The notes under the pieces: generated by a model
Told to the model about the DNA's origin: nothing
The model's input: the letters and a program-made list of their open reading frames with translations, nothing else
Databases searched by the model: none
Part shown: positions 6,561 through 52,980 of the stretch, one piece after another
Layout: each line of letters starts with the position of its first letter
Position numbering within the stretch: position 1 is the stretch's first letter
DNA from: Mytilus trossulus
Taxonomy: Eukaryota
NCBI RefSeq assembly: GCF_036588685.1
Contig: NC_086381.1
Location: forward strand, 67,022,001 to 67,086,000
Reading direction: 5' to 3'
DNA length: 64,000 bases
Translations under genes and position numbers: made by a program

Positions 6561-6779
6561 CTTTAATGAATTAGGGTCATGTAAGGTCAAATTTTAGATT
6601 AACCAACAGCTACCCCCGTTATAAATAATAAGACCAATCAAAATTAGTTTGTTTGCACGTTTCGGAAATTGTTTGAAAATGGATGCTGGATGAACAATAT
6701 GCCTAACCAAATAATGCTAATTTTATCGTAATTCCAGACTTTAATTTTTAATTTTAAGTTCTCTCCCACTGACTCAATC
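6561..6779. promoter_or_regulatory. Putative bidirectional promoter between the EMC10-like and SDR genes
   Basis: 219 bp separate the divergent ATGs. Contains a CCAAT box (gaccaatca, ~6632-6640) and GGGTCA-tgta-AGGTCA (6574-6589). Confidence 0.55.
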
Positions 6780-9700
6780 ATGAATACTAATATTGATTAT
6801 GACGAATATTTAGATGATGACATTATTTTCTATTCTATCTTGTATTCCAGTGTAACTGTTCTGTTTGCCATGGCAGTTCTGTCAAAATTTTTGACAAATG
6901 AATTTCGATTTGGATTTAGATCTGTATTAAGTTTAGCTGTGCTGTTTTTAGGAGAACCCTTATGTCAGTTCTTCATTAAGGGACCTAGCGGTGTGTTTGC
7001 ATTTGCAATGTGTTGTCTTGTTATCTACTCTATCTTGCCTGCCAGTCATCTTCCAGTAGGAAATAAAGCTGTACTCGTTACAGGTAGATACAATGTATTT
7101 TGTTCAAAAATAATGTAATTATAGATTATCATCACAGTACTCTTCTCAGAAAAAAAAAATCCTACATACCTTTATATAACACAAGGTACTGAATTAACTC
7201 ACGATTTATGAAAAAAGTTATCCAGTTGCGAAATTCTGTTATATGCCAATTTCTCAGCTGTCAAACTGACTAAAACTTGTTATTTCATAAATCTAAATTG
7301 ATTTATCTTCTCAATGGTGTATAGCATGCCTACTCTTGTTGTCAGAATTATCCGTATCCCAGTATTACAAGATTTACGACATAACAAAATATAAAAAAAT
7401 CATTTAGTAGATATAGGAAGATGTGGTGGCATATATTATATCTTATTATATAAAATAAACCATGCTAAAAAAAAATCATTGTCAAAGCATATCATTTTGC
7501 ACATGAAACAGAAGAAAAAACATAGACAGCAAACACTATCATGACTATAGACAATAGAAGTCTAAATATGGTTCAAAAACCAAGACAGACCATTAATGTT
7601 GTAATATCTCTGGAAGTAGCTGGGATGCTGTAATGTCTCCGCTTATATTATATATATACATGTACAGATAATTACATTCATGACATTTAAACATTTAAAT
7701 TGGTGAATTCATTTATCACTGTTAATAAAGAATACATGTAAGAGACTGATGAAATTGTTATAAACGATCCATTCACTCACAATCAAAATTATTTTTGTTT
7801 GAATACCAATTTATATGATCAGCACTATGGATTAAACACAATACATACAATATAAACACACATGCAAGCCAATCATTATATTTTTTCACACAATTGTTTA
7901 TTCTACGTGTTCTATGCTTCAAATTGATACACAATGTATTCTCAATTAAAAATTTGACGAAGCATTGAAGAATCATCTCCTGGAGATGATTACATTTGAA
8001 TTTAAATCTCCTGAAAAAAAAGTTATATATTATATACATGTACATGATATATAAATAGAGATTGGTTTTTTTTTGTATTCCAGGATGTGACAGTGGCTTT
8101 GGTAACAGTTTAGTAAAGAAATTAGACAGCATTGGCATGAGAGTGTTTGCCACATGTCTCAGTTTAAATAGTCCTGGTGCTGTGTCCTTACAGTTAGCTT
8201 GTTCAGGAAGGTACTTGTACCAAGTTTCAAAATACCACTGAAATCATTATTTAATATTACAGCTGTTCCTAGATCATCATGATCATGAACACATGTATAA
8301 AAACAATAACTTTTAATTCCTTATATTTGATGAAATATACCAAAATGTAATCTTTCAGTCCTAATCAGTTATCACATACATGTACATTGTGTCAGTTGAA
8401 TGCATTATAAAGAACGATATATAACAAGGTAAAATGCCACAAGGACAATTGTTTACCAAAATATCAACAGAATAAAAAGATATGTGGAGTAGTGTCAATG
8501 AGAATGATGAGAAAAAATACTACAGATTTAGAATAAAAAATTGTTATTGAGGTGAAATTCATTGGAATTAATTACTGTTTAACTATTTTCATATGTATTT
8601 TGCAGTGTTCTTCCTAGAATTTTGAATAGCACCAATACATGTAGCACTGTTTAAAAAAGAAAGATAAAGGTCCCTATGCATTCTACATATATTGTATACT
8701 CAAAATTTCAATTTACCAGTATTTGCTGGTATTTACCAGTATTTACCACTGGCTTGGTCAACACTAGCTATATATATATAGTATTGATCGCTTTTTTACC
8801 AACCTTGCATGACATCATCAAACTCATAACCAAGGGACTTTCACATTAAAGAGATCAACACAGATGGATACTCTTTATAAGCCAAAACTATACTGAAATT
8901 GAAAAGCATTTAAAAGTGAAAATGTTCAAATTGTTTTGCCTACCTGACAAAGACCTTCTATGCCATTGTGTTGATAAACCTAAATGCTTCAAATGATTTT
9001 AACATTTTTCATATAAAATCTTAATTTACAAAATATTGACATACATGACATATATATCTGATTTAAATTTTATTTTGTATTTCATAGGGTTCATTTGTTA
9101 CAACTGGATGTAACATCACAGAAGGACATTGAAACAACAGTAGAATATGTCAAGCAGCATACAGGAGGAGAAGGTATACGTATAATATAGTAAATTAAGA
9201 ACTTGTACATGTTGTATCATCGCAAATGAAAACTCTTCACCAAAAGACCAAATGTCATAGAAATTGATAATTAGAGATCACTGTTCATGCTGTAGGACCT
9301 TAAACAATGAGAAAAGCACATTTGGCATAGATTTAATCATACATTCATTCTACAATTTTCAAAAATCCAAAGATGCTCTTACAGATTGCATAAGTTTGCA
9401 TAAAAATGATATGCTAATACATGTATTACTTTTGTTTTACCCCTGCTTCGTAAAAACAGAATTGTACTTTACCTCTCTTTCAGTTATTGTCGAGCCTTCG
9501 ACTTTAGTCGAAAAAGCGAGACATAGCGATTCTACATTCCGTCTGCGTCGGCCACATCCACAAATATTCACTTTGTGGTTAAAGTTTTCGAAATTTTAAT
9601 AACTTTCTTAAACTATCCTTGAATTGTACGAAACTTGGACAGAAGCTTGTTTATGTTCATAAGATAGTATCTAGAAGTAAATTTTGTAAAAATAAAATTC

Positions 9701-12700: not shown

Positions 12701-13982
12701 AAGGTGGTATGGGAGTCTAAAATAAAAATGATAGAATTTGTTCATACTTTGCCAAAACGTAGTATCTATTGATATATGTTGAAAAATATAATAAAAATGA
12801 TAGGTCACCGTGCGTTTTCTCAAGCTACAGGATGTGACAAAATGACACATTTTGTATGGATTATACAGGGAAAAACACCATTTTGTTATTAGAAACTAAA
12901 CAAAATGATAGAATTGTTCAATACTAAAGGAAAAGATAGCTTTCAGACAATGCTTTGAGAATATCAAAAGAAAAGATAGGGTCACCGTACGTTTTTTCCG
13001 GCTAAAATACAAAATAGGAAAATTCCATGCAGAATCCTTTAGAAAATGCACTGTTTAGAGTTCATTCCCCTTGAAATGCCAATTTAAAAAAAAAACAAAA
13101 AAAAAACAAAATAATGAACATTTGCAAAGATATTTAATAATTATAAGTTATATTCTTATAAGGGCTGTTCCAGAAAATACTATGTCCCCCCCAGGGACGG
13201 CACTTTTTTTTAACCCCCACCACCCACAGAAATAAAATTTAATTAGAACAGCACTCCCTTTGCATTTTGGTATTTCAAATACAACCACCCACATAATATT
13301 TAAAAAAATTGCCTTCCCTGGGGGGGGACATAGTATTTTCTGGAACAGCCCTAAATTGGTTCTTTTAAATGAACATTCACATTTAAAATCTTCATTCCCG
13401 CATCAAATTTTGCTAACTTGATAGAAAATCTGGACCTTTGGTTCTCTGTTTTTTACAATCCAAGATGGAGGAAGACACCCATACCACCTTAAAGACCAAT
13501 GTTTAATTATTTATCACTATTTTAGGCAATTTCATACTAGCAAGTTATATTATAAATGTTGGTTTTTTTTCATATACATTCAATCATAAAAGATTGCTGT
13601 CATATTATTTACTCTATTAATATTTTTTAAATTATGTAATTTTCCAGAAAATATGAAAGAGCATGTGATAAATAGTAGAAAAGCAGAATTATGGGATACA
13701 ATGGACGAAGAAACAAAAATTACGTATGGACAGAAATATTTTGACAGTATATACGATAGCATCATTGAAGGTTCTAATCGTTATCCAGATGATCTGACCT
13801 GTGTAATAAGAGCCATGAGAAGTGGACTGTTGTCCAAGCGGCCAAGAAATCGTTACCCCTGTGGAACAGGAGCCGATTTCATCATGATGCTTTATCCATT
13901 ACTGCCAGTGTGGGTGGCAGATAAATTAATTTCACTTATTAGTATAATGCCAAAAGATGTTAGACCTGCTGGTCTGGATTAA
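6780..13982 (+). CDS. Short-chain dehydrogenase/reductase, SDR9C-type (BDH1/HSD11B2/HSD17B2/RDH-like), 390 aa; exons 6780-7083, 8084-8210, 9088-9173, 10851-11033, 11921-12058, 13648-13982
   Basis: All introns are GT-AG and phase-consistent (1173 nt CDS). Motifs: [37 protein letters not shown], catalytic [15 protein letters not shown]. Hydrophobic N-terminus. Confidence 0.93.
9488..10146 (+). mobile_element. Non-autonomous Helentron/HINE-like element with ~193-bp internal tandem repeats
   Basis: Repeat units start at 9568 and 9761, with a partial third. GCGAGACA motifs near both ends and a terminal hairpin gggttccgcaaaaccc. Related copy at ~26015-26410. Confidence 0.6.
10547..10590 (-). ncRNA. 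Type I hammerhead ribozyme motif (retrozyme/Penelope-derived repeat)
   Basis: Minus strand reads GCATCA-CTGAAGA-GAC ttgtatt GTC-GAAA-TGCTCA-TC-TGGTGC; core intact, stems I and II pair. Confidence 0.65.
12703..13488. mobile_element. Kolobok-like non-autonomous DNA transposon
   Basis: TIR GGTGGTATGGG...CCCATACCACC with TTAA on both sides. Confidence 0.7.
13162..13351. mobile_element. PIF/Harbinger-type MITE nested in the Kolobok-like element
   Basis: Near-perfect TIR GGGCTGTTCCAGAAAATACTATGTCCCCCCC; TAA target duplication at 13159-13161 and 13352-13354. Confidence 0.8.
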
Positions 13983-22539: not shown

Positions 22540-25500
22540 TTACTGTTACTGTAACTGGTATGTTCCTCCTATCTAAGGAGCACTCCCGAAGGATAATAAT
22601 ATTATTATATTTACATGTATATGAATATTTACAGGGACCTGTTAGTAGCACCATTACCCATATAAAAGCCATCACGCTGTACAATATATTCCTCAAGTTC
22701 TGATGTCCTGATTACTATAATACGACACAATCTTTATATATACAATGTCTTTTGATACTTGTTACTCTTTCAGAATATCCTTCCCTTTGAATTGTCATTT
22801 TGATATAAGGTATACTGCTCTTATGTAAAAAATTTATAATCCAATCAAGCCTTGGTCTGGTTCAATATAGTACGTTTTATATGAAGGCTGTAACATAATG
22901 TTCTTGTTATTGCTTCAATATCTTAACAGTTTGATTTCTTCAGATTGAATAGCTCTTTCAACTTTGTAGCTGATGGATTAAGAATGAATAGAACAAGCAA
23001 TCCTTGTGACTCTACTTTGTAAAATGTTCCAACTGGTGTGTTGTTCTTCAAGTAGGATTTAAGAACTGACAAATGCCTATCTCGCTCTGTCTTTAAGGCA
23101 GTACACGTTATCAGAAAGTGATTTTTATCTTCACGGGTTGTTTCACATAGCAGGCAGTTGTCACTTTCTCGACCTCTTGTGAATTTTTCTCTGTCAGATT
23201 GTTAAGTGTAGGTTCTTGTAATTAACCTTGCTTTAATTTCAGCCTTTTTCACTTCGATAGTTGTATTGGGTACTAGCTGCCAGATCTGATGAGGCTTTCC
23301 GATAGGAAGTGGATTTATTTCCAGATATTGATTAGTGGTTTTATTTTCTTTCACTACAAACCACTGTTTTTCCCAATGTATGTTTATTGCCTTTTTTACA
23401 GTCCTTTTCCAGATCTCTTTTGTTGGTTTATTGTTCATTATTTCTTGTGCCTTTGGTAAACTATATTTATCCAAAATTTCTTTTAATTTGTTTATAAAGT
23501 TGTTACTATTTGATGGTGACATGCATAATTGCCTTTCTATGATGATGCTAGTACGATCCTGAATAATGCCTCCGAAAAAAGTAAGGACAATACGATCGAC
23601 AGTGGCTTGTACTGGCTCTACCCCAAGCATAACATATGTGGCGGCGTTTGCTGTTCTGTTCGGCAGTCCCTGAATTTGTATACAGACCTGTTGTTGTAGT
23701 CTTTTAAGCTTCAGAATGTCAGTTTTTGTATAGTTCATTATCTCTATTCCATATAGAAATCTTGGGATTGCATATGTTTGCCATACTTTAAGTGCTACTA
23801 TAGGTGACATTCCTTTTCGTGTGTGGAGGCCTGGGCCTAACATTGCATAGACGGTTTTCCTTGCGGTTTTCAACCTATCCTCGATATTCAGCTTATTTTT
23901 GGAGTCTCTGACTAGTCCTAGATGTTTTGTTTCTGATTTTTGATCTATAATATCATTTCCAAGTTGAACAGAATTTTTTTTCACATTTTGTTGTTAATGG
24001 CACTAAATCAGACTTATTTGGATTTATTGTCACAAGGTCTTTCTTTGTGCTATCATGCACAATATCTAAAATTGCTTGAATCTCATGTTCATGACTAGCT
24101 AGCAGCGCTATGTTGTCTGCGCTTGTTGGTGCACGACGCTTATGTTGCCTATTTTTGCCCCTATATCAGCTCGATTTAAAGCATCTAAGATATTGTTGTT
24201 GTACCTTTTGTAAAGTATCGTGGAAAGCTTTGCTCCTTGCCTTACCGCTTGTCTCTGAATAAATTGATCTGACAGAGTATTATCCCATTTTACTTTAACT
24301 GCAACATTTTTGTACATATTTCTAAGCAAAATCCATATGTTGCCAGTTATGCAATCATGGTACAGTTTATTGAAGAGTATCTCATGGTCTAATTTGTCAA
24401 ATGCTTTCTTGGCATCTAATGTCAGGAGAAAAACCTGTGCAAGTATCTCTTTGTAGAAGTCAGTACATTTGGTTACAATGAAGGCTGCATTAACCGAAGA
24501 TGATTTTTCAGTAAATCCACGCTGCAGTTTACTTTGTTGTTGTAGACGCTTAGGTTCTATTCTGTCTTTAAGTATACTTTAAATCAATGTAGAGAAGCAG
24601 TAAGTCACTGTTATGCCTCTGTATTTTTCAGGATATATCTTATCTTTTCCACTCTTCTGTACAGGAGTAACCACGCCTTCTTTCACATTTGAATGTATAC
24701 ATCCTTTTCTGCGAATATAAGGTTAATAATGTTAATGATATATTGCAGTAGTTCAGTTGGCATATTCTTGAGGTGTTCGGCTGATATTCCATCTGCACCT
24801 GGACTCTTTCCAGTTTTAAGCTTTTGAATGGATAAATTACTTCCTTCGTTTGCTTGTTTTATCTCTTCGTTCCTATTGATTTCTATTTGTTCAATTAGAT
24901 CATTTTGCATAGTGGCAAGAATAAGCCTCTCGTTGTTATATTTTGAATCGTCGTCAATTTTGTGGCTTCTGTACAGGTCTTCAAAGTAGTTTTTCCAACC
25001 TGTAGGTATATCTTCAGGTTCTGCCTGTTTTTTTGCGTTAAATATCATAACAGCTGTGTTCATTTTTTTGACATCCCTTTGATTTTGTATCAGCTGATGG
25101 AATAGCGTGTTGTCGCTTTGAGAAGCCATCATAATTTGCTCTATGAAGGTGTTTTTTTCTTAGATGCATTAGCCCTTCGTTGCGCACTTCTTAATAGCCG
25201 TTTAGCTTTTACCATTTCCTGCTTTTTTCCCGTGTTTTGACTATCAAATTTCCTTTCATAAAATACTATTTTGGAGTGTTTTGAAGCCTGACTAATCTCT
25301 TCATTCCAAATACCATTTCCGATCGCTCTTGAAGTTACTTGTTTCCTGTAATTTGGTATGGAATCTTTTCCTGCCATATGCAATATATTTGTTAATTTTT
25401 CTATTTCTTCGGCTGCTGAACTAAGATTGTGAATGTTAATTTCATCAAGGCTTTTCAGAATGGAGGCCTGATAACTGTCCTTGTCGCACCTTTTCCAGTT

Positions 25501-25829
25501 TGGCCTTTTAAGCACTTTTGCTGTTTTTCTCTTTGTTCTTATAACTTCTGTTTGCATAACTGCATATACGATTGTATGATCGGAGACATTAAGTGGTTCC
25601 ATATCTAAAATTTCCATTTTATAATCTAGTGTTCCAAAGTTGCTCTTGTGCAGAAAATAATCTATCTGCGAGTTGTATAGACCATTATGATGGTAGAAAG
25701 TGTTTTTTTTTGGAAAATTTTCTACTAATTGTATTTGGTTCTCATCTTTAAATTTTTTGAAAGTTATATCTCTTGCTCCGTTATTCCTAACAAGAGAAGC
25801 ATTCATGTCTCCACAAATTAAGATATAAA
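22540..25829 (-). mobile_element. 5'-truncated, inactivated non-LTR retrotransposon (APE endonuclease + RT + C-terminal CCHC-like motif; clade uncertain, possibly RTE-X)
   Basis: Endonuclease motifs ICGDMNA, IDYFL, SDH. RT motifs KSPGADGI, VRQGAKLS, and SADN (dead ADD). CLLC...HFLITC near 23100-23157. Many frameshifts and stops, an (ACAGTA)n tail, and TSD CATACTG at 22533-22539 and 25830-25836. Confidence 0.9.
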
Positions 25830-27098
25830 CATACTGAACAGTAAGCTATAAACATGATAAAGGGTCCCAAATATTACCAGTGCAAAAATATACAAATAGG
25901 GAAAATCAATGGTCTAATCTACATAAAAAATAAGAAAATGTGTTTCAGCCTTTGGATCTGATCCATTTGACTATGATGGACTTTTTGTCTTTATTTTTTG
26001 TTATTCTGCTTTTTGTCGAGTTGCAAAAGCGAGACATAGTAATCCTACATCTGGTCGTTGTCGTTAGTCAGCGGCCGTGTCCGCAAATATTCACTATGTG
26101 GTTAAAGATTTTGAAATTTTAATAACTTTCTTAAATCATCCTAAATTTCTACCAAACTTGGACAGAAGCTAGTTTATGATCAAAGGATAATATCCAGAAG
26201 TAAATTCCTCCAGTAAACATTACATACCGTCTACTGTTTGAGTTTTTAAAACATTTATTAGATTCATAAACTGTACTTTAATTTTACCACACTAGGACGG
26301 AAGCTTCTTACAATCAAAAGATAGTATCTAGAAGGATAAAAATATATTTTTTTCGCGATTTTTGTTGAGCCTGCGACTAACAGTAGAAGTCGTCGAGAAA
26401 AACCTTTACACATTCAATTCTTAAAACAAATTTGAAGTGATTTACTCTCAATATTTGAATGTAAGATCCCGAAGCTCACATGTTGAAAAACAAATAATGC
26501 CAATTTCCCATACAGAGGTTCGTAGGTCAAATTTTAAAAGTGTAATAGCCACCAGAAATTCGGGTATTTAGAGTCTACACATTTTTCAGAATGTATCGTA
26601 GGTTTTAACTGCAATAAAAAAAAAAATTAAAATCAGTTACCGCACAGCCTTCTAGCTTTGCATGTTGGAGGTTATGGGCGCAATCATTACCTAGGTTAAA
26701 CTTAAGACTGAACATGTGTGATAGCCGTTTCTCCGGAAACAAAAACGCACCATGAAAGATGCTGGTCGGTTGGAAGTCAGAATTGTGTGTCCGGATAGGA
26801 TGACGTCTTCTTGTGGTCTGTTACCTTGTTAACTTTCATTTTACAAAACATGCCATTCGTTATCATCATCCATTATTGAAATATCACAAATAGACACGAT
26901 AATCTTGATGTCAATACAAACGATTGTTGATATGGAACAGTTCATGTGAAAATGGTGAAAATTAACTTAATACTACAACATAACTGACAAGGAGCCGACA
27001 TAGAGATTTTAAAGTCAACACTGAAAAGATTCACAACTGCAATCAAACGTGTTTTACATTCTCTGATTTGCATCAACTTTTAAAAAAATAATATTTGA

Positions 27099-29980: not shown

Positions 29981-31777
29981 ATGGAAATGGCAGTGTCTAC
30001 ACTGAGACTTACGGCAGAAGAGAAAAACTACTGGAAGTTTTGCATGCTCAATGTCAGGGTTGTACCAGGTGCACTGCGCAGTTACTTTGACGGGCTAATA
30101 CCACCTACATATTTAGCTACCACAATCAACAACTATTCATCAACGATTCTAAACCTTGTAACATGGAAAGTTATCAACGCTGCACAACTCAATATACTTC
30201 AGAGAATACCTGGAACAATATGGCCATCCAAAGTCACTCCAGTACCAATTGGATCTACAGGTATGTATATTCAAGTGTTGTGTTGTTTTTTACCAAGTCT
30301 AGTATTGTTGATGAGTTATTGTAAAAAAAAAGAAAAATTAGAAGCCTTAACAGTAAATTTTATCTGTTAATTAAGGTGGCACCAAAAACCTTGACTAAAA
30401 TTAATTGGGCTCGTTCAGTGTATTTTTACTTGCCCCTTTAACAAACATATCCAAATCTAAAAAAAAAAAATTTAAACAAACTTTATCGGAAACACTTATA
30501 ATCAGACATTCAGAGCTAGTACCAGTACAATTACTGTGTGTTTTAAATATCGTATATATACTACCCTTGTCTCATCTACACTTATTTTTGCATTAAAACT
30601 TGAAAATTTGCCTCTCGCCTTATATAGATATAGGAAGATGTGGTGTGAGTGCCATTGAGACAACTCTCCATCCAAATAACAATAAATAAAAGTAAACCAT
30701 TATGTCTGATTTGTAGATACAATATGATCAAGTGATGTCTTGCCTATACTTTCATTTTGGTATTGAACAGTGTATATCGAAATAATTCTCCACCGTTCTC
30801 TAAAGAATGGACAAATATTTGAATATATTTAAAATGTTTTACGATTAAAAATGAACATTGATATAAAAATAATAGTAACGACTGAATTTATTTAAAACTT
30901 GACTCTAAATCTTTACATTTCGAGAATCATAGTTTGCGTGCATAAAAAATACAGCTGATTTGGCCATAGCGGGTTATGAATTAATGTCATGTACCTTATA
31001 TCACTTCCACATTTATTTAAATATTAGTAACACAGATGTGCAATAATACATATCGTTTCCTTTTTAGATACATTCTCCGCACATTTTGATGTGACATTGA
31101 TGGTGTGCTTACTAAGGAACATAACATTACCAGGAATATCCCAACCAGTGACAGGATGGGATACTCTCCCTAACCCTAATGACATTTGTCCAGGGGCGTA
31201 TTTAGCAAGAACAAAATACTATCGCAATGAGATAGCGCATTCAACTGAACACACATTGAATACATTTGACTTTCAGGATAAATGGAAAGCATTGAGTGAG
31301 GTTTGTTTTTTATACATATGGCTGTGTGATCGAAAATTATTGCGCATGTGAAAGAATATTTTAATTTGAATAAATGTAACAGTCAGTCTATTTTTCTATA
31401 AAACGCTTTGTTAACACAATTAACTGGAATGTTTCTCCTTTTGATGTCCATATTATGTAAAAAGATGTAAATTATTTTGAATTTTTCTTATTCTTGAAAA
31501 ATTGCTTTCCATTTTCAGGCAATCAAATTCTTTAATGGTGGGTCTCATCCTAACGACATTTTAGATATTTGGCATTGCGACCTGGATGGATCACATAATG
31601 GTGATGTTGTTACAGCCTTGTCTACTGAAATCGATGAAATCAAACGTGACCTGACTTTGGTTGAAGTCGAAAACAATCAAATAAAAAAAGACCTCAAACG
31701 AACTAAATTACAACTTGAAGATGTTCGAAATAACTTTGCTCATTATAAGCGTAACACCCCACCAAAAAGAAATTTAG
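29981..31777 (+). CDS. HEPN (DZIP3-type) + coiled-coil module, paralogue 1; exons 29981-30260, 31068-31300, 31519-31777
   Basis: Open frame across three GT-AG exons. FDVTLMVCLLRN, GWDTLP and RNEIAH (31223-31240). Homologous exon by exon to copies 2 and 3. Confidence 0.85.
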
Positions 31778-32056
31778 GTTGGTAAAATTAATATACAAGT
31801 TAATACGAGATGACTTTTGAAAGGAACACGTGTTGGATAATAGTTCGCATTTGCCCCTTTGTATGTCGGTCGTTGAAATAACAAAAATGTCAACTTTCTA
31901 CTCGAGTTCGCATTATCCTTTTTGATTCCAGCGTCTTTGATGAGCATTTTGAAATCAAAATGCTTTTCTTGAATTTAAACCAAAGGTATTTTTTGTATTT
32001 TGTTATAGCATCTAAAACACGAGAAACACTTCATCGTAAATAAGATACATATAACA

Positions 32057-32416
32057 TAGATAAAAATTGGAGCAGGACAAGACATTAAAAGATGCAAAGC
32101 ACATAATTCAGGACGATCCTTTCGGGAAAGAAATGGTTACACTCTTAAATTTCTTTGTTTTATATTACCTGCATGAATATTCTTTTTTTAAGTTTTTCCA
32201 TAGTAATAAGACAATTGATATTCCAGATAGAGAACGTGATGCACTACTTCATGCTGTTGTCGCGATTGAAAGGCAAGAGGACAGCATAGAATTTGCAAAC
32301 ATGCTTTTGGAAAGCGGTGCTGTAACTTTTTTTCTAACAACATTGGTTATCTACCCGCTGATATTGCCTTTCTGCGAATGTCGTACAACATAAAACGCTT
32401 CCTGGACAAAATGTGA
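32057..32416 (+). pseudogene. Frameshifted remnant of the last ankyrin repeats of the large exon
   Basis: IDIPDRERDALLHAVV...MLLESGA [frameshift] NNIGYLPADIAF aligns by eye with copy 2 IDIPDKEGNTRLHAAA...MLLERGANP...NNNGCLPADVAF (~51600-51970). Confidence 0.8.
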
Positions 32417-32603: not shown

Positions 32604-34766
32604 CTTTCAAACATATAAGGGTATTTGTAACCTATGCTGATGACAGTAAAAAACACTTACAAAAGGTGTTAAATCTATGTCGATGTCTGGACAAAAATAG
32701 TTTCAGCTGCTGTTTGGATGTGTTTGACAAACGAATGCCACAGGAGCATATGTTAAACAGACAAGGCTGGTGTGCTCATCAGTACAATGAGGTATGTATC
32801 AATAAATAGGTTGATATGGATTTTTTCTTCACGTATTATGTTATTAATAAACACAAATAAAGGACCTAGCGATCACAGAAAAAAATCCAAAAGAAATCTG
32901 GATTGGTCCATTACAGATTATGTAATATTAATGGAAGTTGACTTGGGATACAGCAAATTCAATATTACCAAAATCATCCCTGAAGTATTGATCATGCCCA
33001 TGGTTGGTTGTTATGACCCCCGAATCAATGTGCAGGGCCATTTTAACTTTCCGAGGTCATTATTAATAGACATGGCATTTTACAGGGCAAATGTTAAAAA
33101 ACTTCATGTATTGATTCTTTTTTAATCAACTTATTACATGAGCAGTTTTCTAGTCATGTGTCCAAATGCAGCTGTCAACGAATCTATAACAGGAACATTG
33201 CATATTCTGTCAGTTGATAACACTTTGATATAATTGTTTTAATTATTCGATTTAACTAAGAGTAAGAAACTTACGGTGCAGAAAAAAAACATGAATTCAA
33301 CGGTGAACTTGTCAATTCGCATTCACGGGTTTACATCCGAGTACTTACTCTATGCTATTTCAATTCATTTTATCAGGCAAATATAAAGTAGCCGAGAAGA
33401 ATAACTTAGACAGTTCACTACTCTTGGGTAGTCTGCGTTCTTATGATTGATCAACCGAAATGAAACAGTGGAAAAATTGGAAAGTATTCGAAAGGCTATA
33501 AACATTTCCGCTTCTAGACGTTACAAAAACCAACAATCGTTTTAACCTTTTGTATGATATGTAGTTAACACAACAGTTAAAAGCTGTAAAATAAACGTCA
33601 ACATCATGGGAATTTCGTAATGCACGGATGTGATTTTCGTAATTCATGACTGAGATTTCGTAATGACTAACTGTGGCAAATTCTCAGTTCACAGTTACAA
33701 GTTCTCGTTCCATTTATAAAGCATGAACATTTCTGTATATATTTTAACAAGTTTGTTTATAAATATGAATAAAAAAACCTCATCAGATATACCAGGCATA
33801 TAATTTTTAACACTAGATGCTTGTACCACGAGAGAGCGGTTGTTAAGACTATCAAGTATCTGCCATCAGCACCAAATTAAAAAAAAATGCAAAGATGCAT
33901 GGACAAAAGACAACCAANNNNNNNNNNNNNNNNNNNNNNNNNNNNNNNNNNNNNNNNNNNNNNNNNNNNNNNNNNNNNNNNNNNNNNNNNNNNNNNNNNN
34001 NNNNNNNNNNNNNNNNNNNNNNNNNNNNNNNNNNNNNNNNNNNNNNNNNNNNNNNNNNNNNNNNNNNNNNNNNNNNNNNNNNNNNNNNNNNNNNNNNNNN
34101 NNNNNNNNNNNNNNNNNNNNNNNNNNNNNNNNNNNNNNNNNNNNNNNNNNNNNNNNNNNNNNNNTACAGAACGAGGTTGAAGACCAACCTGAAATTCTAT
34201 TTCAACACTTATGTGAGCATCCCGTGTGATGCTTTTTAACCTCCATTACTCTTCTTCCTGTTTATCCAATGATTAAAATTGGACGTCTCATTTGTTAATA
34301 ATGACTAAAAAAGCATTTGCAAATGCTACCGAACTCATAATTTTGTCTATGCTATTTTTTGTAGTTTTTGCAACAACAACACAATTAATGTAAATATTCC
34401 TTTTTTTCACAGGCTGATTTCATTATTATGTGTGTGTCGGAGCAGTACAAAACAGAAATTGATATGTATGAATGTGAAAGTCAAATAGACGACAAGGAAC
34501 TACACATTCAGTTTATTTATAGCCTCATGTTGGCTGAACTTAAACAGAACGGAAATAAAAACTCCAGAGTTATTCCCCTTTTGTTTAAGGGTTGCACTGA
34601 AGTTAATATTCCACAATGGTTGGAACACACGTATGTTTATACTTGGCCAGGGCAGTACAGAGACTTGTTATGGTGTCTAACAAAACCACACACAAGGATA
34701 AAACTACAATCACAGCGAAATCATAGCACGTCTACGTCACATGTTAACGGACCACACAGTATATAG
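32604..34766 (+). CDS. SEFIR domain, CIKS/Act1 (TRAF3IP2)-like; exons 32604-32791 and 34413-34766, probably spliced to the HEPN exons upstream
   Basis: First exon encodes RVFVTYADDSKKHLQKVLNLCRCLDKNSFSCCLDVFD...GWCAHQYNE; second encodes ADFIIMCVSEQYK...LHIQFIYSLMLAE...NSRVIPLLF...IPQWLEHTYVYTWP. This follows the CIKS SEFIR pattern as I recall it (KVFITYS...LHTKYIHRMMQIE...RFIPVLF...VPTWLQNTHVYSWP). Phase-0 junction is consistent. Confidence 0.88.
33918..34164. other. Assembly gap (247 N)
   Basis: Run of n inside the intron between the two SEFIR exons. Confidence 1.
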
Positions 34767-44400: not shown

Positions 44401-45401
44401 TATATTTCAATTATGAACAAACTATGACTGAGTGTGATCTGCGTTATAGATAGAAGCACTTTAAATTTGTAATACATATTTTGCTGGCTAGAGTAGGTCT
44501 TAAAATACATAATCATGTTTTGAAATCATGGCCTTTACGTCATATTATCTACCTTGACATTTATTGATTATATTTTGAATTGCGATATTCTAAACCATAT
44601 ACATTTCTTTTGTGAATAAAATGTATACGATTGGATGCATGGTTTTGTAATTATAAATATTTGTTATTACATTATACGATCAAACAAATCAGAGGGACAG
44701 GATGGGGTTTACAGAATATAAAGTAAAGTTGAAAATTTAGAAATAAAAAGGTAAAAAGATTCAAGAAAAGGTAAAAAGATTCAAGAAAAGATAAAAAGAA
44801 TAGTTAATAAAGGCGTGCATTAATTTTGAAAATAAAAAATATTGAACAAACAGTATATAGGATAGAGATAGAGACAAAAATGCACCAAATTTAAAGAACA
44901 CAGAATTGAAGGACCCCAATTCAGACCTTCAGGTACAGAAAGGTAACAGAAAGACTTGTGCGAGTTAAACGCTGGAGTTGGAGCAGTGAGAAATTTATAC
45001 CGTTGATTGCCATAAAACAAGATGATGTGGTTCTCTTAGAATTTTGTGCCATACATTCTTCTGAAGACATCATTGGAAAATTTCACGGGTATGGAAATGA
45101 AAAAAGATAAACTATAATGACTGTATTTGCTGGATGACATTCAACATATAAGGTATAGAGCGGATCAAATATATTTATGTCAGGTGTGGAAACTTACTTC
45201 AGGTACCGAAATATTGAAATGATAATAAAAAGGTAAATGGAAGTCAAAAACGTTTAGATAAAAGAACATCATTATTATTTATGAGAGTGAGTGTAACAAC
45301 AGTCTGCTATATCATTTTTTTTTTTTACTATTTTTTTATTAAATTTTCTTTTAATTAAGAATAAACTCATCATAGATACGAGGAATAAAAAATTAATATT
45401 T

Positions 45402-45445
45402 ACGCCAGACGCGCGTTTCGTCTACAAAGGACTCATCAGTGACGC
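45402..45445 (-). ncRNA. Type I hammerhead ribozyme motif, intact core
   Basis: Minus strand reads GCGTCA-CTGATGA-GTC ctttgta GAC-GAAA-CGCGCG-TC-TGGCGT. Confidence 0.75.
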
Positions 45446-45500
45446 TCGAATCAAAAATGTTATAAACTGGTTTCAGAATCTATCAACTTTATTTTAGAAA

Positions 45501-48500
45501 ATGGCAATGTCTTCACTAAAGCTGACTGTAGAGGAAAAGAATTACTGGAAGTTTTGCATGCTTAATGTCAGGGTTGTACCAGATGCACTTCGAAAGTATT
45601 TTGACGGTCGTATACCACCTGCAAACCTGGCTACCACAATCAACCAAAACTCCACGACAATTGTTAATCTTGTTAACAGACGAGTTATAAATTTAGCCCA
45701 GCTTGATATATTGCAGAGAATACCTGGCACAATATGGCCACCAAGATGTCTTGCAGTACCAACTGGATCTAGTGGTAAATAAACAAAAAATATTTACAAA
45801 ATGTCATTAGAATAATTTCTAAGTAATATTTTGTATCTTATGATAAGTCTCATTATGGTAGACCTGTTACGTGTTTCTATTTTTTTAATCCTGGTACCTT
45901 TGATAACAATTTATAACTTTTTGAGATTTAATTTAACCCAACTATAATTAGAAATAAGATAAAAGACAAAGTGGAATGATTATCAATGAGACATCAATTC
46001 AGCAATATTTGTTTAGAGGTTTTGTTATCTCAACCAGAACCGATCAAGTATCGATTATCGTTCGTCATCGGAGTACAAAGTCCTTCGGAAAAAGCAAAAT
46101 AAGAACAGAAGTAATTCCTTCTCGTGCTGATTTTATTGGTGGAAATCGTGTTGCTTAGTCTTTTGCTATGTATGTTGTGTCTACTGTACTATTATTTGTC
46201 TGTTTGTCTTTTTTAATTTTAGCCATGACGTTGTCAGTTTATTTTCAATCAATGAGTTTGACTGTCCATCTGGTATCTTTCGTCCCTCTTTTTATCATCA
46301 TCGAAAATGACCACTTCCGGTCTATCATATATAAGGCAACATCTCGCTAGACAATGTTTATCATTAGTTGTTATCATAATAACAACGAAAATACATATAA
46401 AAAAACACTTTTATGTATGATTCAATGGTTGTCGTTAATTGCTGCCTGATATCTAGTGGTAGGTTTATTATTTCCAAACACATCTTATCATCTTTTATTA
46501 ACATATTGCTTGAGATCCAGTATATTTAACCCTACCACATTCTGTGTTATGTGCCTGTCCCAAGTCAGGAACCTGTAATTCAGTGGTTCATTCAGTATAG
46601 GCATTGCTCCTTGTTGAAGGCCTTCCGGTGTCGTTTGGTCTCTTTGGTAATCATACCACATCTTTTTTTTCTTTCATATTTACTGTAACTAGTTCAAATT
46701 ACTCTTGGCAAAACTCTTCACATCTAGAAGTAGTCAGGGTTGTCTCATTTGAACGTCTTACATTAATTAGTTATCTTCTTTGTAATTATTAAATAATTTC
46801 GAGAAATATACGAAAATCACTCAATATAAATAAACAAATTTATTGTAAACTCATATGTGTTTCTCGAAATTTGTTATCTTCATTTAGTAACACTAGGTCG
46901 ATGCAACTGCTGATGGAATATTAATTCCACGTGGTATCTTCAGCTCAAAAGCTTCTTCGGTACTGACATGATTTATGACATACTTTTCATAACATGTTCT
47001 ATTGATTTTTATTAATCACAACATAAGGTTTGAACTGTCTCCTTCCTGAGTTATCATATATGTATTTTGATGTGTCTTGTGAACTTAAACCTCATCTGGT
47101 ATTAAGGTATTCGTACATCCTTGTGAATATTATTATCATTTTTTTTCATCTTTTTAACAACATATAACTCACTTGCTTTTAAAATATCAAACTTCTAGAC
47201 AACAGTAAGAAAATGAGCTGGCTTTGGTAAAGTCAGAAACTTCCACAAACTTACTCTTTAATATTAAGACTTTAATCAAACAAGACTTATCATTTAACAA
47301 GATCTTAAATATTTACAATAAACAAGAAGATATTGCCAATGTGACAAATAATCATTAGAGACTACTACACGTAGTATATTTATTCAATCACAGATATATT
47401 GTCTTTGAAATCATGCGTTATGAACTGTTCTACTCGCGTTGTTAGTTTCAACAAATCCGGGGCTGCCGCCGCAATGCTTTATTTCGTTTTCAATTCAATA
47501 ACTTAATAGTTCTTGTGTTGAAAAAAAATATAAAAGGAATATTAATGTTACTGTATAACGAATATGACTAGCCGTACAGCTATTTTAATTTTGCGGCAGA
47601 TTTCCAGTGTTCCTGCAGGAGGTCAGTAGTTCACTTTTAATTCTCATGTTTACTCAAACAATTACAACAATGGTAATATGCGTGTGTGATCGGGTGTCGT
47701 AATACACCACCAAATAATTAAGCAAGATGTCTACTTATATTACATTCTTGTTTTAGCTACTTCTTCAGCAGATTTTGACGTTACCTTGATGGTGTGTTTA
47801 CTGAGGAATATACCATTACCAGGGATATATCAACCTGCTTCCGGATGGGATAATTTACCTATTCCTAGTGACAAATCGCCAGGTGCTTACCTTTCAAGAA
47901 TAAAGTACTATCGAAATGCGATAGCACATTCAACTGAAAACAAATTGAACACATTGGATTTTCAGGGCAAATGGAAAACAATCAGCGAGGTTTGTATATA
48001 CTTTTTAAGTTGTTACCAATTGAATGATATTTCAAAAGCTTATAACATTTTGGACTTTGTCAGCGATACTTATGTCTTTTATCCCGATTTTTGTTCTCGT
48101 AAGTTAGGAGCATGTAATCCAGGGGTTGGTACTCGTTGCCATCTGTGTTTTCTGGTTTCCTTGGCAATCATATTATTTATTCTTATGTTTATGCAGAAAT
48201 CATTGTTCCTTTTTTATATACATATTAAACATAAAAAAAATTAATATATTATCATTTGTGAACTTAACATATGAGATAAGATCGGATAACTCGTTTGCGC
48301 TGAAATACTTTCATGATATTTACATTTTTCGCTAAGTGCTATAAAATCGCATTTTGCTATTTATTTCAGGCAATAACATTCTGTAATGGTGGGCATTGTC
48401 CGAATGCAATTATGGAAATTTTGCATTGCGACTTGGATGGTTCGCAGAATGGTGTAAATGTTACTTGCTTAATGACAGAGATCGAAGCTGTTAAAGGGGA

Positions 48501-51500
48501 TCTCCAAAGGACTGAACTTCAACTAGAGAATGTCCAAAGTGACTTTCACTTTTATAAGGATGGGCACTTGCCAAAAAACATTGCAGGTATTAATTTAAAC
48601 AACTTGTGCATCCGAACTGTATAATTAAATTATTAAACACGACTGTAAAATATCAATTCTAAAATAAAGACCATGTACATAACAATGTAATCGAGGTACA
48701 TTGCGTTCGTTAGACAGCAAAAACAGAGCAACACATTGATTGGGTGGAAAATAAGAAATTATCAAGATAATAATTAAAAAAGACAACAGACGGGAAGCCA
48801 ATAGGAAATGTTAGACTGTTAAATATCTTGAAAAAGTTATAATATATTAAAATACGACAGGGTGTCAAATGTGCAGAGAGACGTCACTCATCTACTTCTA
48901 ATATTTGTATAAAGCAGACATAAGAACAGGAGCGGCCACTTATTTCAATTCTAGATCAAATTAATTTTTTGAAAAGTATTATTCTTCGGATTTAGGAACA
49001 TCTTACATTGTGTTCAGCAAAGGTTAAATATAATTAGGCAATGCCATCTTTAAATCATTCTAATGTCACATATCTAACACATTGACAATTTATTTGGATA
49101 CAAAGAGGACTGAAATGTTTGTTTTTTATTTGTTTTCAATTCAAATCATATACATAAAAAGTATAATCACAAAAATACTGAACTCCGAGGAAATTTCAAA
49201 AAGGAAAGTCTCTAATCAAATGGCAAAATCAAACACATCAAATGAATATAGCATTTAAATTATGGTTAATAATTATAATCAAATGTTTTAGACAACATTA
49301 ATGAGCTAATCAACAAATGGAGGATAGAAGATAAACCCTTTTTCTTTACTAGAGCAGGAAAACTGGTATACGATATGTTAGAATCTGAAAATATTGTCAT
49401 GATAATTGGACAATCAGGCTCTGGTAAATCAGCAACAGCTCGACATATAGCATTAAAATGGATTTCAAACGGTTACGATGTTGTTTCAGTGGAATCTGTT
49501 GAACAAATATTGGGATATAGATGCAAAGGAACGAAACAAATCTTTGTGATAGATGATGCAGTTGGGAAATATTCAGTAAACGGATCTTATGTCAATCAGT
49601 GGGAAAGGCTAGATTCGAAACTGACAACGTTATTTGATGACGATAACGCGAAACTTATTTGTACATTACGGAAGGTTGTGGCTATTGATTCAAAATTCAA
49701 GGCATCAAAAACGTGTTTGAGTGAAAAAGCTTATATCGTTGATTTAGACCATGAAGACAACTGTCTTCTGTTGGAGGAGAAAATGTCAATTTTGAAAAAT
49801 CATTTGATTAGCACTGACAGACAAAATGATATAAGCGATGAGGAATGTAAAGACTGTTGTAAAGGTAACTTTGCCTTTCCACTATTATGCCATGTTTTTA
49901 CAACAAGTAATGGCCTCTTTCTGCGCAAATCTGATTTCTTTCAAAAGCCGTTTAACTATTTGAATGATGAAATAACAAAATTACATCAGCGAAACAAAGA
50001 AGTCTATTGTTCATTAGTTACATGTATGATATTTTCTGGGAAGTTGAAAGTAAAATTGTTTTCTCTTTCTGATGATTCCGACGAAGAACAAGAGAAAAGC
50101 GGGCGTATAATTGGTATGATAGCTGAAGCGTGTGGCCTAAATAGAAATATTTCCAGACAGACATTACTTGATAGTTTGCTCTCCGTTGAAAGCGTATATG
50201 TAAAATCATATTGCGGAGTGATAAGTTTTCTACACGACTCTTTCCTAGAAGCTATTAGTTTTCACTTCTCAAAGGTGAATCCATATGTATTTTTAGAATG
50301 TTGTGATATTGCATTTTTGAAGGAAAGAGTTAGGGTGATTTCATCACAGGTAAACGACGATGAAAATGTAATTGTATTAAACGATGAGTCATTCGGACTT
50401 TTAGCAAATCGATTTATTGCAGAACTGAAGGCAGGGGAGTTCATGGATGTATTATGCAGCCATCCAATTAGGAATGAGAAATTTATCAAAGTGATGGGCG
50501 CTATTATCGACGGTGGACAACTGATAACCCGACAAAAGCTTGTGGAAACGGAAATCTCCTGTGTGGCTTATATAAAATGGAAGCATTTTGATCCTATATA
50601 TAAACAAGAAGACAATGTAGAAGCAGTAGCAGCAATCATGGAAATTTTCCCGGCTGGTAAAACATTATTACATTGGCTCATAGCCACTGGCTGCAATTAT
50701 TTCGTAGACTTTTTTTTTAAACGAATGTCACGAAAGCAACAAAACAAATACATTCGATCAGATAAGTCTATTTTCTCACTAGCTTTATTAGGCGGTTGCA
50801 AAGAAATCATTCAATCAATGCTTGAAAAAGGTGCAAATGTTAATTCTCTTGAAAGTCAGTATGCTTTAAAGAAACTAGTTATTAATGGCAGAGATACCAA
50901 ATTATTAGAATGTCTTAAGTATTATGGAATTGGAATGCACTTCATCGACTATCAAAGAAAATCGCTGCTTTTTTATGCAATAACGTCTAAAAATCTGAAA
51001 ATTCAGACATTTTTAGTTGAAGAAGATTCACAGCAACACGCTTTACATGAGGCTGTTTTTTATTCAAATACTGAAAAGCTAACTAATCTTCTTAGTAGTC
51101 ACGGCATTAATTTGGTTTCAAATAACGGTTGGTCGGTTATGCATTTTGCTGCATATAAAAACGACATCGCAATGATGGGAATTATATTTGAAACCGCGAT
51201 GAAAAATGAATTATCTGTTTTGGACAAAAGAGACAAGATTGGCTGGAGTCCTCTTCATTTAGCTTCTATCTTATCTAATTATAAAGCAGTTGATTTTCTT
51301 ATGAGCAAAGGTGCTAATGCTAGTTCAATCGACAATGACGGAAAAACACCTCTACATATTTCAGGCAATGAACAGATAACCAGTTCTTTATTGCAATACA
51401 ATCGTTGTTCAATTGAAATGTCGACTAGAACTGAACGTCATTCAACTGAATTACGACACCAGCACACAACAAACAATACGAACGATATAAATAAAACGAA

Positions 51501-52980
51501 AGACATAGCAATAGATATCGAAGATGTTCATACTGAAATGGCAAACACACTCTTCTTCTCGATTAAATTCATTGGGGAAAACAACATTGAATTTAAGCAA
51601 GATGAAGATAAAAATTGGAAGCCACATGTAAACAATTATCCAATACATCAGGACATTGTGAATGAAATTCCAGAAAAAATGAAGAATTGGCACCCCTCAT
51701 TATTATCTTTGATCCATGTAACCTATATGAATTTTCTTTTCTGGTGTTTTTCCATTGTAAAATTCCGAAAGAACATTGATATACCAGACAAGGAAGGAAA
51801 TACACGTCTGCATGCTGCCGCATCGATGGAAAATCAGGATGACAGCATATCATCTGTGAAAATGCTTTTGGAAAGAGGAGCTAACCCCCTTTTCTACAAC
51901 AATAACGGCTGTTTGCCAGCTGATGTTGCGTTTTACAGGCACTCATATAAAGTTAAACTTTTCCTTGATATCTGTGCACTACATGCAGCGAAAAGGGGAC
52001 TTGGAATTCTTGTTTTGACTTTAATTATATCGTTCCTTTCGGTCATTTCTCTTTCCTTAGCCGCTTACTATATCTGTCCTAATTACACAAATAGTAACAA
52101 TTTGAATAATATTTCTACCAGTAACTTTACCAATATATCAAATGACACTTTTCAAAGTGACACTAACATTTGCTTAGACAAAAACAATGTTTCAATCTTA
52201 TGTGAAAATAGAACAGGAGACGTCTATCAACACATGTACATACATCCCTTCAATTTCGTTCACCCTCTGGCGATTGCATGTGTATTGTTTATTAATTTAT
52301 TTTTTGCGTTGAGTAAAAAACTACTATGTCGACAAAAATATTCTACTTTTGAAGGTCTTTATTATATGTATGTACATTCGACTTTACTTTTGAAATTATC
52401 ATCTATATGTTTTTCTAATCGTAGAAAATTCAAAATATTGGAAAACTTGATTTTTAATTTCTCCTTAATGAATGTGGTAATTTTATTAATTGATGTAATT
52501 ATAAGATTGAAACAAAGGTATTATCCAGAATGGTTGATATTCACTCGGATTCCATTGCAGTTTATTTTATGTTCTAGTAATATATTTATTATAGTAATTT
52601 TCCATGAACCGTTCCGTAAGATACAGGCAAGAATGTTTGATATAAGATTCATGTTAAACAGTCTATCATGTTGGTCAATAATGTCACTTTCATTAAGCTT
52701 TATCTTCATTTTCATTGCATTATATATATATATTAATATCATTCCGTTTTGTACATATGCGATTTTGTTAAAGATGTGGGGAAAATGCAAGGGTTTCCGT
52801 CGACACTTCTATCAAATGCAATTTGTAATCTTCAAAGTGGCTTTTGAGAGCCCCGTAAGGAAACAACCCCGTTATGGCAACCCTTCATTTACATGGAAAA
52901 ATATTTTCCAAGCTATACTCATCTTAATTCTACTCATTTTTGAAACAATCGTGTTTTATGATTATTACCACATTGACTAA
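45501..52980 (+). CDS. HEPN(DZIP3-type)-coiled coil-STAND (nSTAND3-like) NTPase-ankyrin repeats-multi-pass TM protein, 1470 aa; exons 45501-45774, 47757-47989, 48370-48586, 49292-52980
   Basis: 4413-nt uninterrupted CDS, GT-AG introns in phases 1/0/1. RNAIAH at 47912-47929, Walker A GQSGSGKS at 49408-49431, Walker B IFVIDD at 49540-49557. Ankyrin motifs GKTLLH, GWSVMH, GWSPLH, GKTPLH, GNTRLH...LLERGANP. About 6-7 hydrophobic segments after ~51997. Confidence 0.9.

Follow-up and report, generated by a model that had tools for sequence, protein, structure and literature searches.

The stretch of DNA that we analysed, called the window below, comprises 64,000 nucleotides of Mytilus trossulus (contig NC_086381.1, positions 67,022,001 to 67,086,000 of the forward strand), and positions given here are those of the window. 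It carries on its + strand, at 45501-52980, a gene of four coding exons whose introns are all GT..AG and whose frame of 1470 residues has no internal stop. The predicted protein begins with a HEPN domain, followed by a coiled-coil linker, a STAND switch, ankyrin repeats and a multi-pass membrane tail. A first-pass annotation of the letters had claimed the intact coding sequence and the HEPN/STAND/ankyrin layout; both were borne out, the latter by Pfam (PF18738, PF20720 and Ank_2, Table 1). The gene is real, intact and spliced. Its HEPN-STAND-repeat core is ordinary for bivalves, and the new part is a Mytilus clade in which this core is joined to an unclassified multi-pass tail. We see an even chance that the product is a membrane-embedded, NLR-like immune receptor whose STAND switch, when triggered, would set its HEPN to cutting RNA.

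Structure and transcripts of the focal gene

Splicing was followed in contigs of the runs X15, X1 and X4. These runs carry no RNA record, and it is from the spliced joints in their contigs that we conclude that the contigs derive from transcripts. The intron in the 5'-untranslated region (UTR), 45153-45497, is absent from contigs of all three runs, introns 2 and 3 are skipped in all three and intron 1 in X1 and X4, and depth over unique intron stretches is low or nil. The whole gene is spanned by no single contig; pieces from different runs bridge one another's breaks in exon 4, and contigs of all three runs continue through most or all of the tail without a break. Lack of transcription had been named by the first-pass annotation as an argument against its proposal, and spliced contigs were found. 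Inside the 5'-UTR intron lies a dispersed repeat of about 107 bp (45360-45467), with dozens of sites 88-96% alike, several matches being paired about 360 bp apart.

The RefSeq model of the gene (P0003, an uncharacterised Mytilus trossulus protein of 1011 residues) is identical over exon 4 up to about residue 1031. It then treats 51628-52425 as an intron and ends early, lacking both the last ankyrin and the tail. Splice-like GT..AG ends are present there, and perhaps this soluble form is the working product, with the tail a little-used or decaying extension. We hold this to be very improbable, given that the contigs X15-12, X1-5 and X4-18 cross 51628-52425 unspliced (among the joints listed) and that the tail frame is open, conserved and evolving with a ratio of non-synonymous to synonymous rates (dN/dS) under 1. 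A M. edulis RefSeq protein, of 1514 residues, presents the full layout from HEPN to tail. A tail produced by AT-rich read-through was ruled out, the frame being open for 346 codons against a mean of 51 and a maximum of 141 in 2000 shuffles of the tail DNA. Automatic gene models can drop such tails, and this may have hidden the clade.

Table 1. Features of the focal gene and of its tandem copies, in positions of the window
Feature	Position	Strand	Evidence or remark
5'-UTR exon (start approximate)	44972..45152	+	Junction 45152/45498, GT..AG, in contigs of X1, X4 and X15
Coding exon 1, N-terminal HEPN helices	45501..45774	+	Joint to exon 2 in X1 and X4; aligns with HEPN-bearing homologues
Coding exon 2, HEPN_DZIP3 core, RNAIAH at 47912-47929	47757..47989	+	Pfam PF18738 E=1.4e-22
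Coding exon 3, linker with heptad coiled coil (48460-48546)	48370..48586	+	Heptad positions; paralogue length steps
Coding exon 4	49292..52980	+	Frame; stop codon at 52978-52980
nSTAND3 nucleotide-binding domain	49339..49806	+	Pfam PF20720 E=3.5e-29, 153/155 positions
Helical domain 1 (FPL motif 49867-49887), winged helix (FLHDSFLE 50227-50250), helical domain	49807..50655	+	Motif conservation; AlphaFold2
Main ankyrin-repeat array	50656..51380	+	Pfam Ank_2 E=4.4e-27; fold matches with Z up to 19.3, root-mean-square deviation (rmsd) 2.0, 122 aligned
Semi-hydrophobic conserved helix and last, detached ankyrin repeat beside the membrane tail	51697..51939	+	Common to both tailed subclades; Pfam Ank best stretch
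Multi-pass tail, 6-7 predicted helices; sequon-rich loop 52081-52254; stop 52978-52980	51997..52980	+	Hydropathy, homologues
Tandem copy A: lacks STAND, most ankyrins and tail; keeps intact HEPN (RNEIAH) and coiled-coil exons and a frameshifted remnant of the last ankyrin	29981..32410	+
Tandem copy C: same layout, two in-frame stops, frameshift near end	61081..64000	+	Extends about 3.6 kb beyond the window end

Effector, switch and repeats

The HEPN domain matched HEPN_DZIP3 with 80.5 bits against a cut-off of 27, and its Rx4-6H motif is present as RNAIAH. The claim of an intact motif held: R, N and H are invariant in 22/22 aligned proteins, and RNxxxH is kept in all 19 of the HEPN exons read (20 were fetched near related loci). 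The protein could alternatively be a non-immune or non-catalytic receptor or scaffold, its HEPN binding RNA or partners, or it could handle membrane-bound RNA in housekeeping. Such a role would be consistent with the accessible text of PMC9646362, where the site of DZIP3-type HEPN domains is called putative and no RNA cutting is shown. The invariant R-N-H motif, the large lineage-specific expansion and the frequent broken copies are unlike a housekeeping gene, and we find this alternative unlikely.

In the linker encoded by exon 3, heptad positions are occupied by V, I, L, L, F and by L, V, T, V, and differences in coiled-coil length between paralogues are of exactly 7 or 14 residues. When the first 250 residues of the M. 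coruscus orthologue were modelled as two copies, the score was 0.43, and the best of three controls had 0.00; the mark set for such dimer models is reached by 7 of 16 animal homodimers and by 0 of 30 eukaryotic monomers. The runs agreed in at least 80% of contacts, with a predicted local distance difference test score (pLDDT) of at least 77. This modelling supports the pairing of two chains through the linker coiled coil, and it carries no information on the HEPN active site.

The nSTAND3 match reached 101.9 bits against a curated cut-off of 27.2. Within it we located a Walker A motif (GQSGSGKS, 49408-49431), a Walker B motif (IFVIDD at 49540, in the segment 49540-49566) and a sensor-1-like LICTLR (49654-49671). 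Further downstream, the residues F418, P419, F535, H537 and D538, which form the F-P and F-x-H-D motifs, are invariant in 37/37 aligned rows. AlphaFold2 gave for the STAND five core strands, a helical domain and a wing hairpin (526-535) followed by a helix, at a mean pLDDT of 75. As judged from sequence, the focal switch domain is a STAND NTPase of the nSTAND3 class, in line with the assignment of the P-loop to STAND in the first-pass annotation. In fold searches with the 1011-residue model all matches listed were ankyrin-containing entries, and phmmer with the STAND part against PDB sequences returned nothing useful.

The first-pass annotation had called the protein NLR/Avs-like. In the Pfam scan NACHT (PF05729) stayed under its cut-off (18.1 bits against 26.7, over 28 residues only) and there was no leucine-rich repeat (LRR) family at E<=0.1, the focal repeats being ankyrins. 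The predicted protein would consequently fall outside the bona fide NLRs, defined by NACHT plus LRR (PMC3879445, PMC8260672). PADLOC presented no Avs model at E<=0.01, only PDC-M72A (ankyrins), PDC-S73 (STAND part, E 3.7e-12) and mad8; with no Avs model match, and as an intron-bearing animal gene, the focal gene lies outside Avs/AVAST. The NLR-like layout therefore stands, and by strict definition the protein is neither an NLR nor an Avs.

The membrane tail and its evolution

Six hydrophobic windows (Kyte-Doolittle at least 1.6) occupy residues 1147-1464, the fifth having the length for two helices, and the tail is kept in four homologues at 32-48% identity; the multi-TM tail of the first-pass annotation is thus confirmed as a conserved feature. 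The loop after helix 1 holds 7 sequons against 2.7 in shuffles (p=0.003), and one homologue of the focal subclade has 6 in its first loop (p=0.02). Lys/Arg counts agree with an N-inside topology except in the third loop. The N-terminal part is accordingly predicted to be cytosolic and the sequon-rich loop to be lumenal or outside the cell. With six to seven putative helices and loops of a glycosylation type, the tail looks like more than an anchor.

Pfam gave no tail match below E=0.3. A fold search with a poor AlphaFold2 model of the tail gave at best Z 7.2 (rmsd 2.5, 68 aligned), and the best Atlas match of the focal tail was TMEM117 at 0.76, a weak lead, while the M. edulis tail had none. 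Only 7 matches, all of them close relatives, were found for a tail profile among 1.84 billion representative proteins.

A first look at the genome produced 595 nSTAND3 and 582 HEPN_DZIP3 candidates. We fetched 80 STAND loci, namely 20 other top nSTAND3 matches and 60 of 113 relatives, including 20 of the closest, and called tails as hydrophobic windows at the C-terminus of the longest open frame, with downstream exons left out. On this basis at least three windows were present in 14 of the 80 loci, one in 4 and none in 62. All 14 multi-pass loci belong to one subclade, against 0/61 loci with such a tail outside the clade, and the five in-clade loci without a multi-pass tail are broken or below threshold. 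The 14 further loci and the M. edulis protein rule out a tail unique to the focal gene. The tether, described as unusual by the first-pass annotation, is accordingly rare in the family at large and common to a whole Mytilus clade.

STAND trees join the 14-locus subclade with the focal subclade at supports of 98, 99 and 98. The first, larger trees gave a warning of long branches meeting at the focal-sister join; in a 27-row STAND tree without long end branches the join still had 98. Past the last ankyrin the tails of the two subclades do not align (HHalign probability 0.3%, against 0.9% for a reversed control). The sister clade (L039-L057; G000 C3, C4, C6, C10, C11, C13 and C38) consists of tailed HEPN-nSTAND3-ankyrin genes with 28 genome matches, and its tail has, late, a second loop rich in Cys and sequons (61 against 24.9 expected, over 14 related loci). 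Its Walker A, SxSGxGKT, was considered as clearly degenerate and this was dismissed, A/SxxGxGKT being common family-wide. In annotated members of the clade a single chain comprises HEPN, nSTAND3, ankyrins and tail. The named tailed homologues are all from Mytilus (five species), and oyster and abalone relatives are without a tail. Outside the clade, the STAND-ankyrin frames L021, L025, L029 and L082 end in a single hydrophobic stretch; these are possibly independent tail anchors, and that of L082 may be intron read-through.

The focal gene (copy B) is flanked by two broken tandem copies, A and C. A comparison of copies B and C by the pairwise NG86 method gave dN/dS values of 0.26 for the helical/winged-helix part, 0.32 for the ankyrins and 0.58 (confidence interval 0.37-0.83) for the tail from the second membrane segment (TM2) to the end. 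Over 66 pairs of the sister clade it climbs from 0.28 in the nucleotide-binding domain to 0.67-0.75 in the tail; identity there is 0.27-0.30 in the membrane segments, with dN/dS at 0.69-0.75, and 0.59-0.61 in the helical and ankyrin parts, where dN/dS is about 0.4. The STAND module is under purifying selection, and the tail is constrained yet fast-evolving, the most divergent part of the protein. Two paralogues have tails 98-100% identical and STAND DNA only 85-87% identical, which points to an exchange of tails between paralogues. Among the allele differences listed (40 of 350 rows), those in the last ankyrin and tail are non-synonymous in 7 of 8 cases and those in the STAND in 2 of 10 (Fisher p=0.015). 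In the same cluster, the M. galloprovincialis model P0005 runs from the last ankyrin of one gene straight into exon 1 of the tandem copy that follows, a fusion that is probably due to faulty annotation.

These observations raise the possibility that the tail is itself the sensor, a multi-pass domain with glycosylated outer loops that would respond to a ligand outside the cell or in the lumen, or to membrane stress, and pass the signal inwards by way of the last ankyrin to STAND and RNase in the manner of IRE1. Its divergence in sister-clade identity and dN/dS, the mostly non-synonymous allele differences and the near-identical tail on diverged STANDs would all fit, and a mere anchor could do with one helix, as three or four other loci appear to have. 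A dN/dS under 1, the tolerance of membrane segments for change, together with their poor alignment, and the retention of the ankyrin array argue the other way, and we judge the proposal rather unlikely. Our reserve is the same for its wider form, a mussel class of multi-pass STAND receptors in which a fast-diversifying glycosylated tail of new fold would sense the outside or lumen and fire a cytosolic STAND-HEPN RNase, an IRE1-like outside-in circuit assembled from NLR components, in which paralogues would exchange their sensor tails.

The tail could also be a pore or channel opened by STAND oligomerisation, with the HEPN a second or accessory effector. In leading directly from ankyrins into several membrane helices, the protein is reminiscent of TRP channels and of plant ACD6, and the same adjacency is seen in Kidins220. 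TRP channels and Kidins220 did turn up among our ankyrin matches, which cover the ankyrins only and leave the tail without a sequence link. The Pfam scan of 6 focal and 14 sister tails gave no match beyond ankyrin, and a pore would be expected to be conserved, yet no part of the protein is less conserved than the tail, and the two subclades have tails that do not align. Even with the precedent of anthozoan NLRs that carry channel-forming connexin-like domains (10.64898/2026.06.13.731801, accessible text), a pore appears decidedly unlikely to us.

Proposed mechanism and relation to known systems

Beyond the anatomy, every step of the immune-receptor reading, and with it the ligand triggering, oligomerisation, RNase activity and immune role put forward by the first-pass annotation, is one that we infer from the way in which STAND and HEPN families operate. 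The resting STAND module would be closed. A ligand met at the membrane would be bound by the ankyrins and would drive nucleotide exchange and oligomerisation of the STAND; HEPN domains paired by their coiled coils would bring two RxxxxH motifs into one active site, and nearby RNA would be cut, leading to a translation stop or cell death. The tail would set the place of RNA cutting. Tandem birth-and-death, hundreds of paralogues and the exchange of tails are typical of immune receptor families, and we count them for an immune role.

Several results weigh against this mechanism. Raw reads of the RNA-seq run X24 (about 19% of the run sampled) were almost absent from the unique exons of the focal gene, so that this sample either lacks the gene or does not express it. 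In the dimer model, made on an orthologue of 86% identity and of a kind in which coiled coils pass such marks easily, the confident contacts are those of the coiled coil (residues 191-246) and of residue 16, and the HEPN is almost without any. The membrane helices were called from hydropathy windows only, the third loop, predicted to be outside, holds 4 Lys/Arg, there is no excess of sequons in 4 of 6 focal-clade loops, and the AlphaFold2 tail model, from 6 sequences, has a pLDDT of 41.7. Finally, dN/dS exceeds 1 in no part of the protein by pairwise NG86, so that an arms race or positive selection is unsupported.

RNase L and IRE1 possess a HEPN-type RNase switched on by dimerisation, joined to an ankyrin sensor in the former and to a membrane tether and lumenal sensor in the latter. 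They serve as an analogy only, since their KEN-type HEPN (PMC3710099, Table 1) is C-terminal, their switch has a kinase fold and they have no STAND. The claim that proteins like ours are common in bivalves is correct and had been published (PMC9646362, PMC3710099): HEPN-STAND-repeat expansions are described in bivalves and cnidarians, with a putative RNase role (PMC9646362, PMC3710099, PMC8260672, PMC8195603; papers are cited here for their accessible text). These DZIP3/hRUL138-like proteins resemble the focal one in having an N-terminal HEPN with RN-x-x-x-H, a central STAND and C-terminal repeats (PMC9646362, PMC3710099, PMC8260672), and the focal family in their large expansions, their copy-number change and a function that is only hypothesised. 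They differ in carrying NACHT with LRR, TPR or WD40, whereas the focal protein combines nSTAND3 with ankyrins and ends in a multi-pass tail, a feature that goes unmentioned in the accessible text.

The bacterial Avs5, a tested system (10.1101/2025.07.08.663546), has nSTAND3 for its switch too, again between an enzymatic effector and helical repeats, and goes to a membrane-bound infection site. Unlike the focal protein, Avs5 is prokaryotic and has a Sir2 NADase and TPR/Sel1/PPR repeats, and the word transmembrane does not occur in the text accessible to us. The anthozoan connexin-like-NACHT-LRR proteins are also animal STAND proteins with several membrane helices (PMC3879445, 10.64898/2026.06.13.731801). 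There, however, the three to four helices are connexin-like and N-terminal, in the effector position; in the focal protein they come after the sensor repeats, and a separate HEPN domain is retained alongside them as effector. We found no description of a HEPN-nSTAND3-ankyrin protein with a C-terminal multi-pass tail, although subscription papers and supplements, above all those of PMC8195603 and PMC9646362, may hold such architectures.

Most STAND receptors are cytosolic, and the membrane-bound animal ones described have N-terminal helices. If our reading is right, a C-terminally tailed clade with an intact RNase effector would put RNA cleavage at the membrane, or let a STAND read outside signals. 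As a defined, intact and spliced test case, the focal gene can serve to ask if bivalve DZIP3-type HEPN-STAND proteins, of which there are hundreds, act as inducible RNases.

Elsewhere in the window, a SEFIR-domain exon (34389-34763, +; Pfam E=1.4e-7) is found just past a stretch of N, downstream of copy A and upstream of the focal gene; it probably belongs to a separate gene, which we presume to be of an IL-17-pathway type. Two broken reverse transcriptase fragments of the LINE (long interspersed nuclear element) type are on the - strand, at 56201-57514 (RVT_1, E=1.7e-28) and, by inspection, at 23205-25845. The open frames 6732-7115 and 13590-13979 (+) gave no Pfam match above cut-off, and we take them to resemble exons of a short-chain dehydrogenase-type gene.

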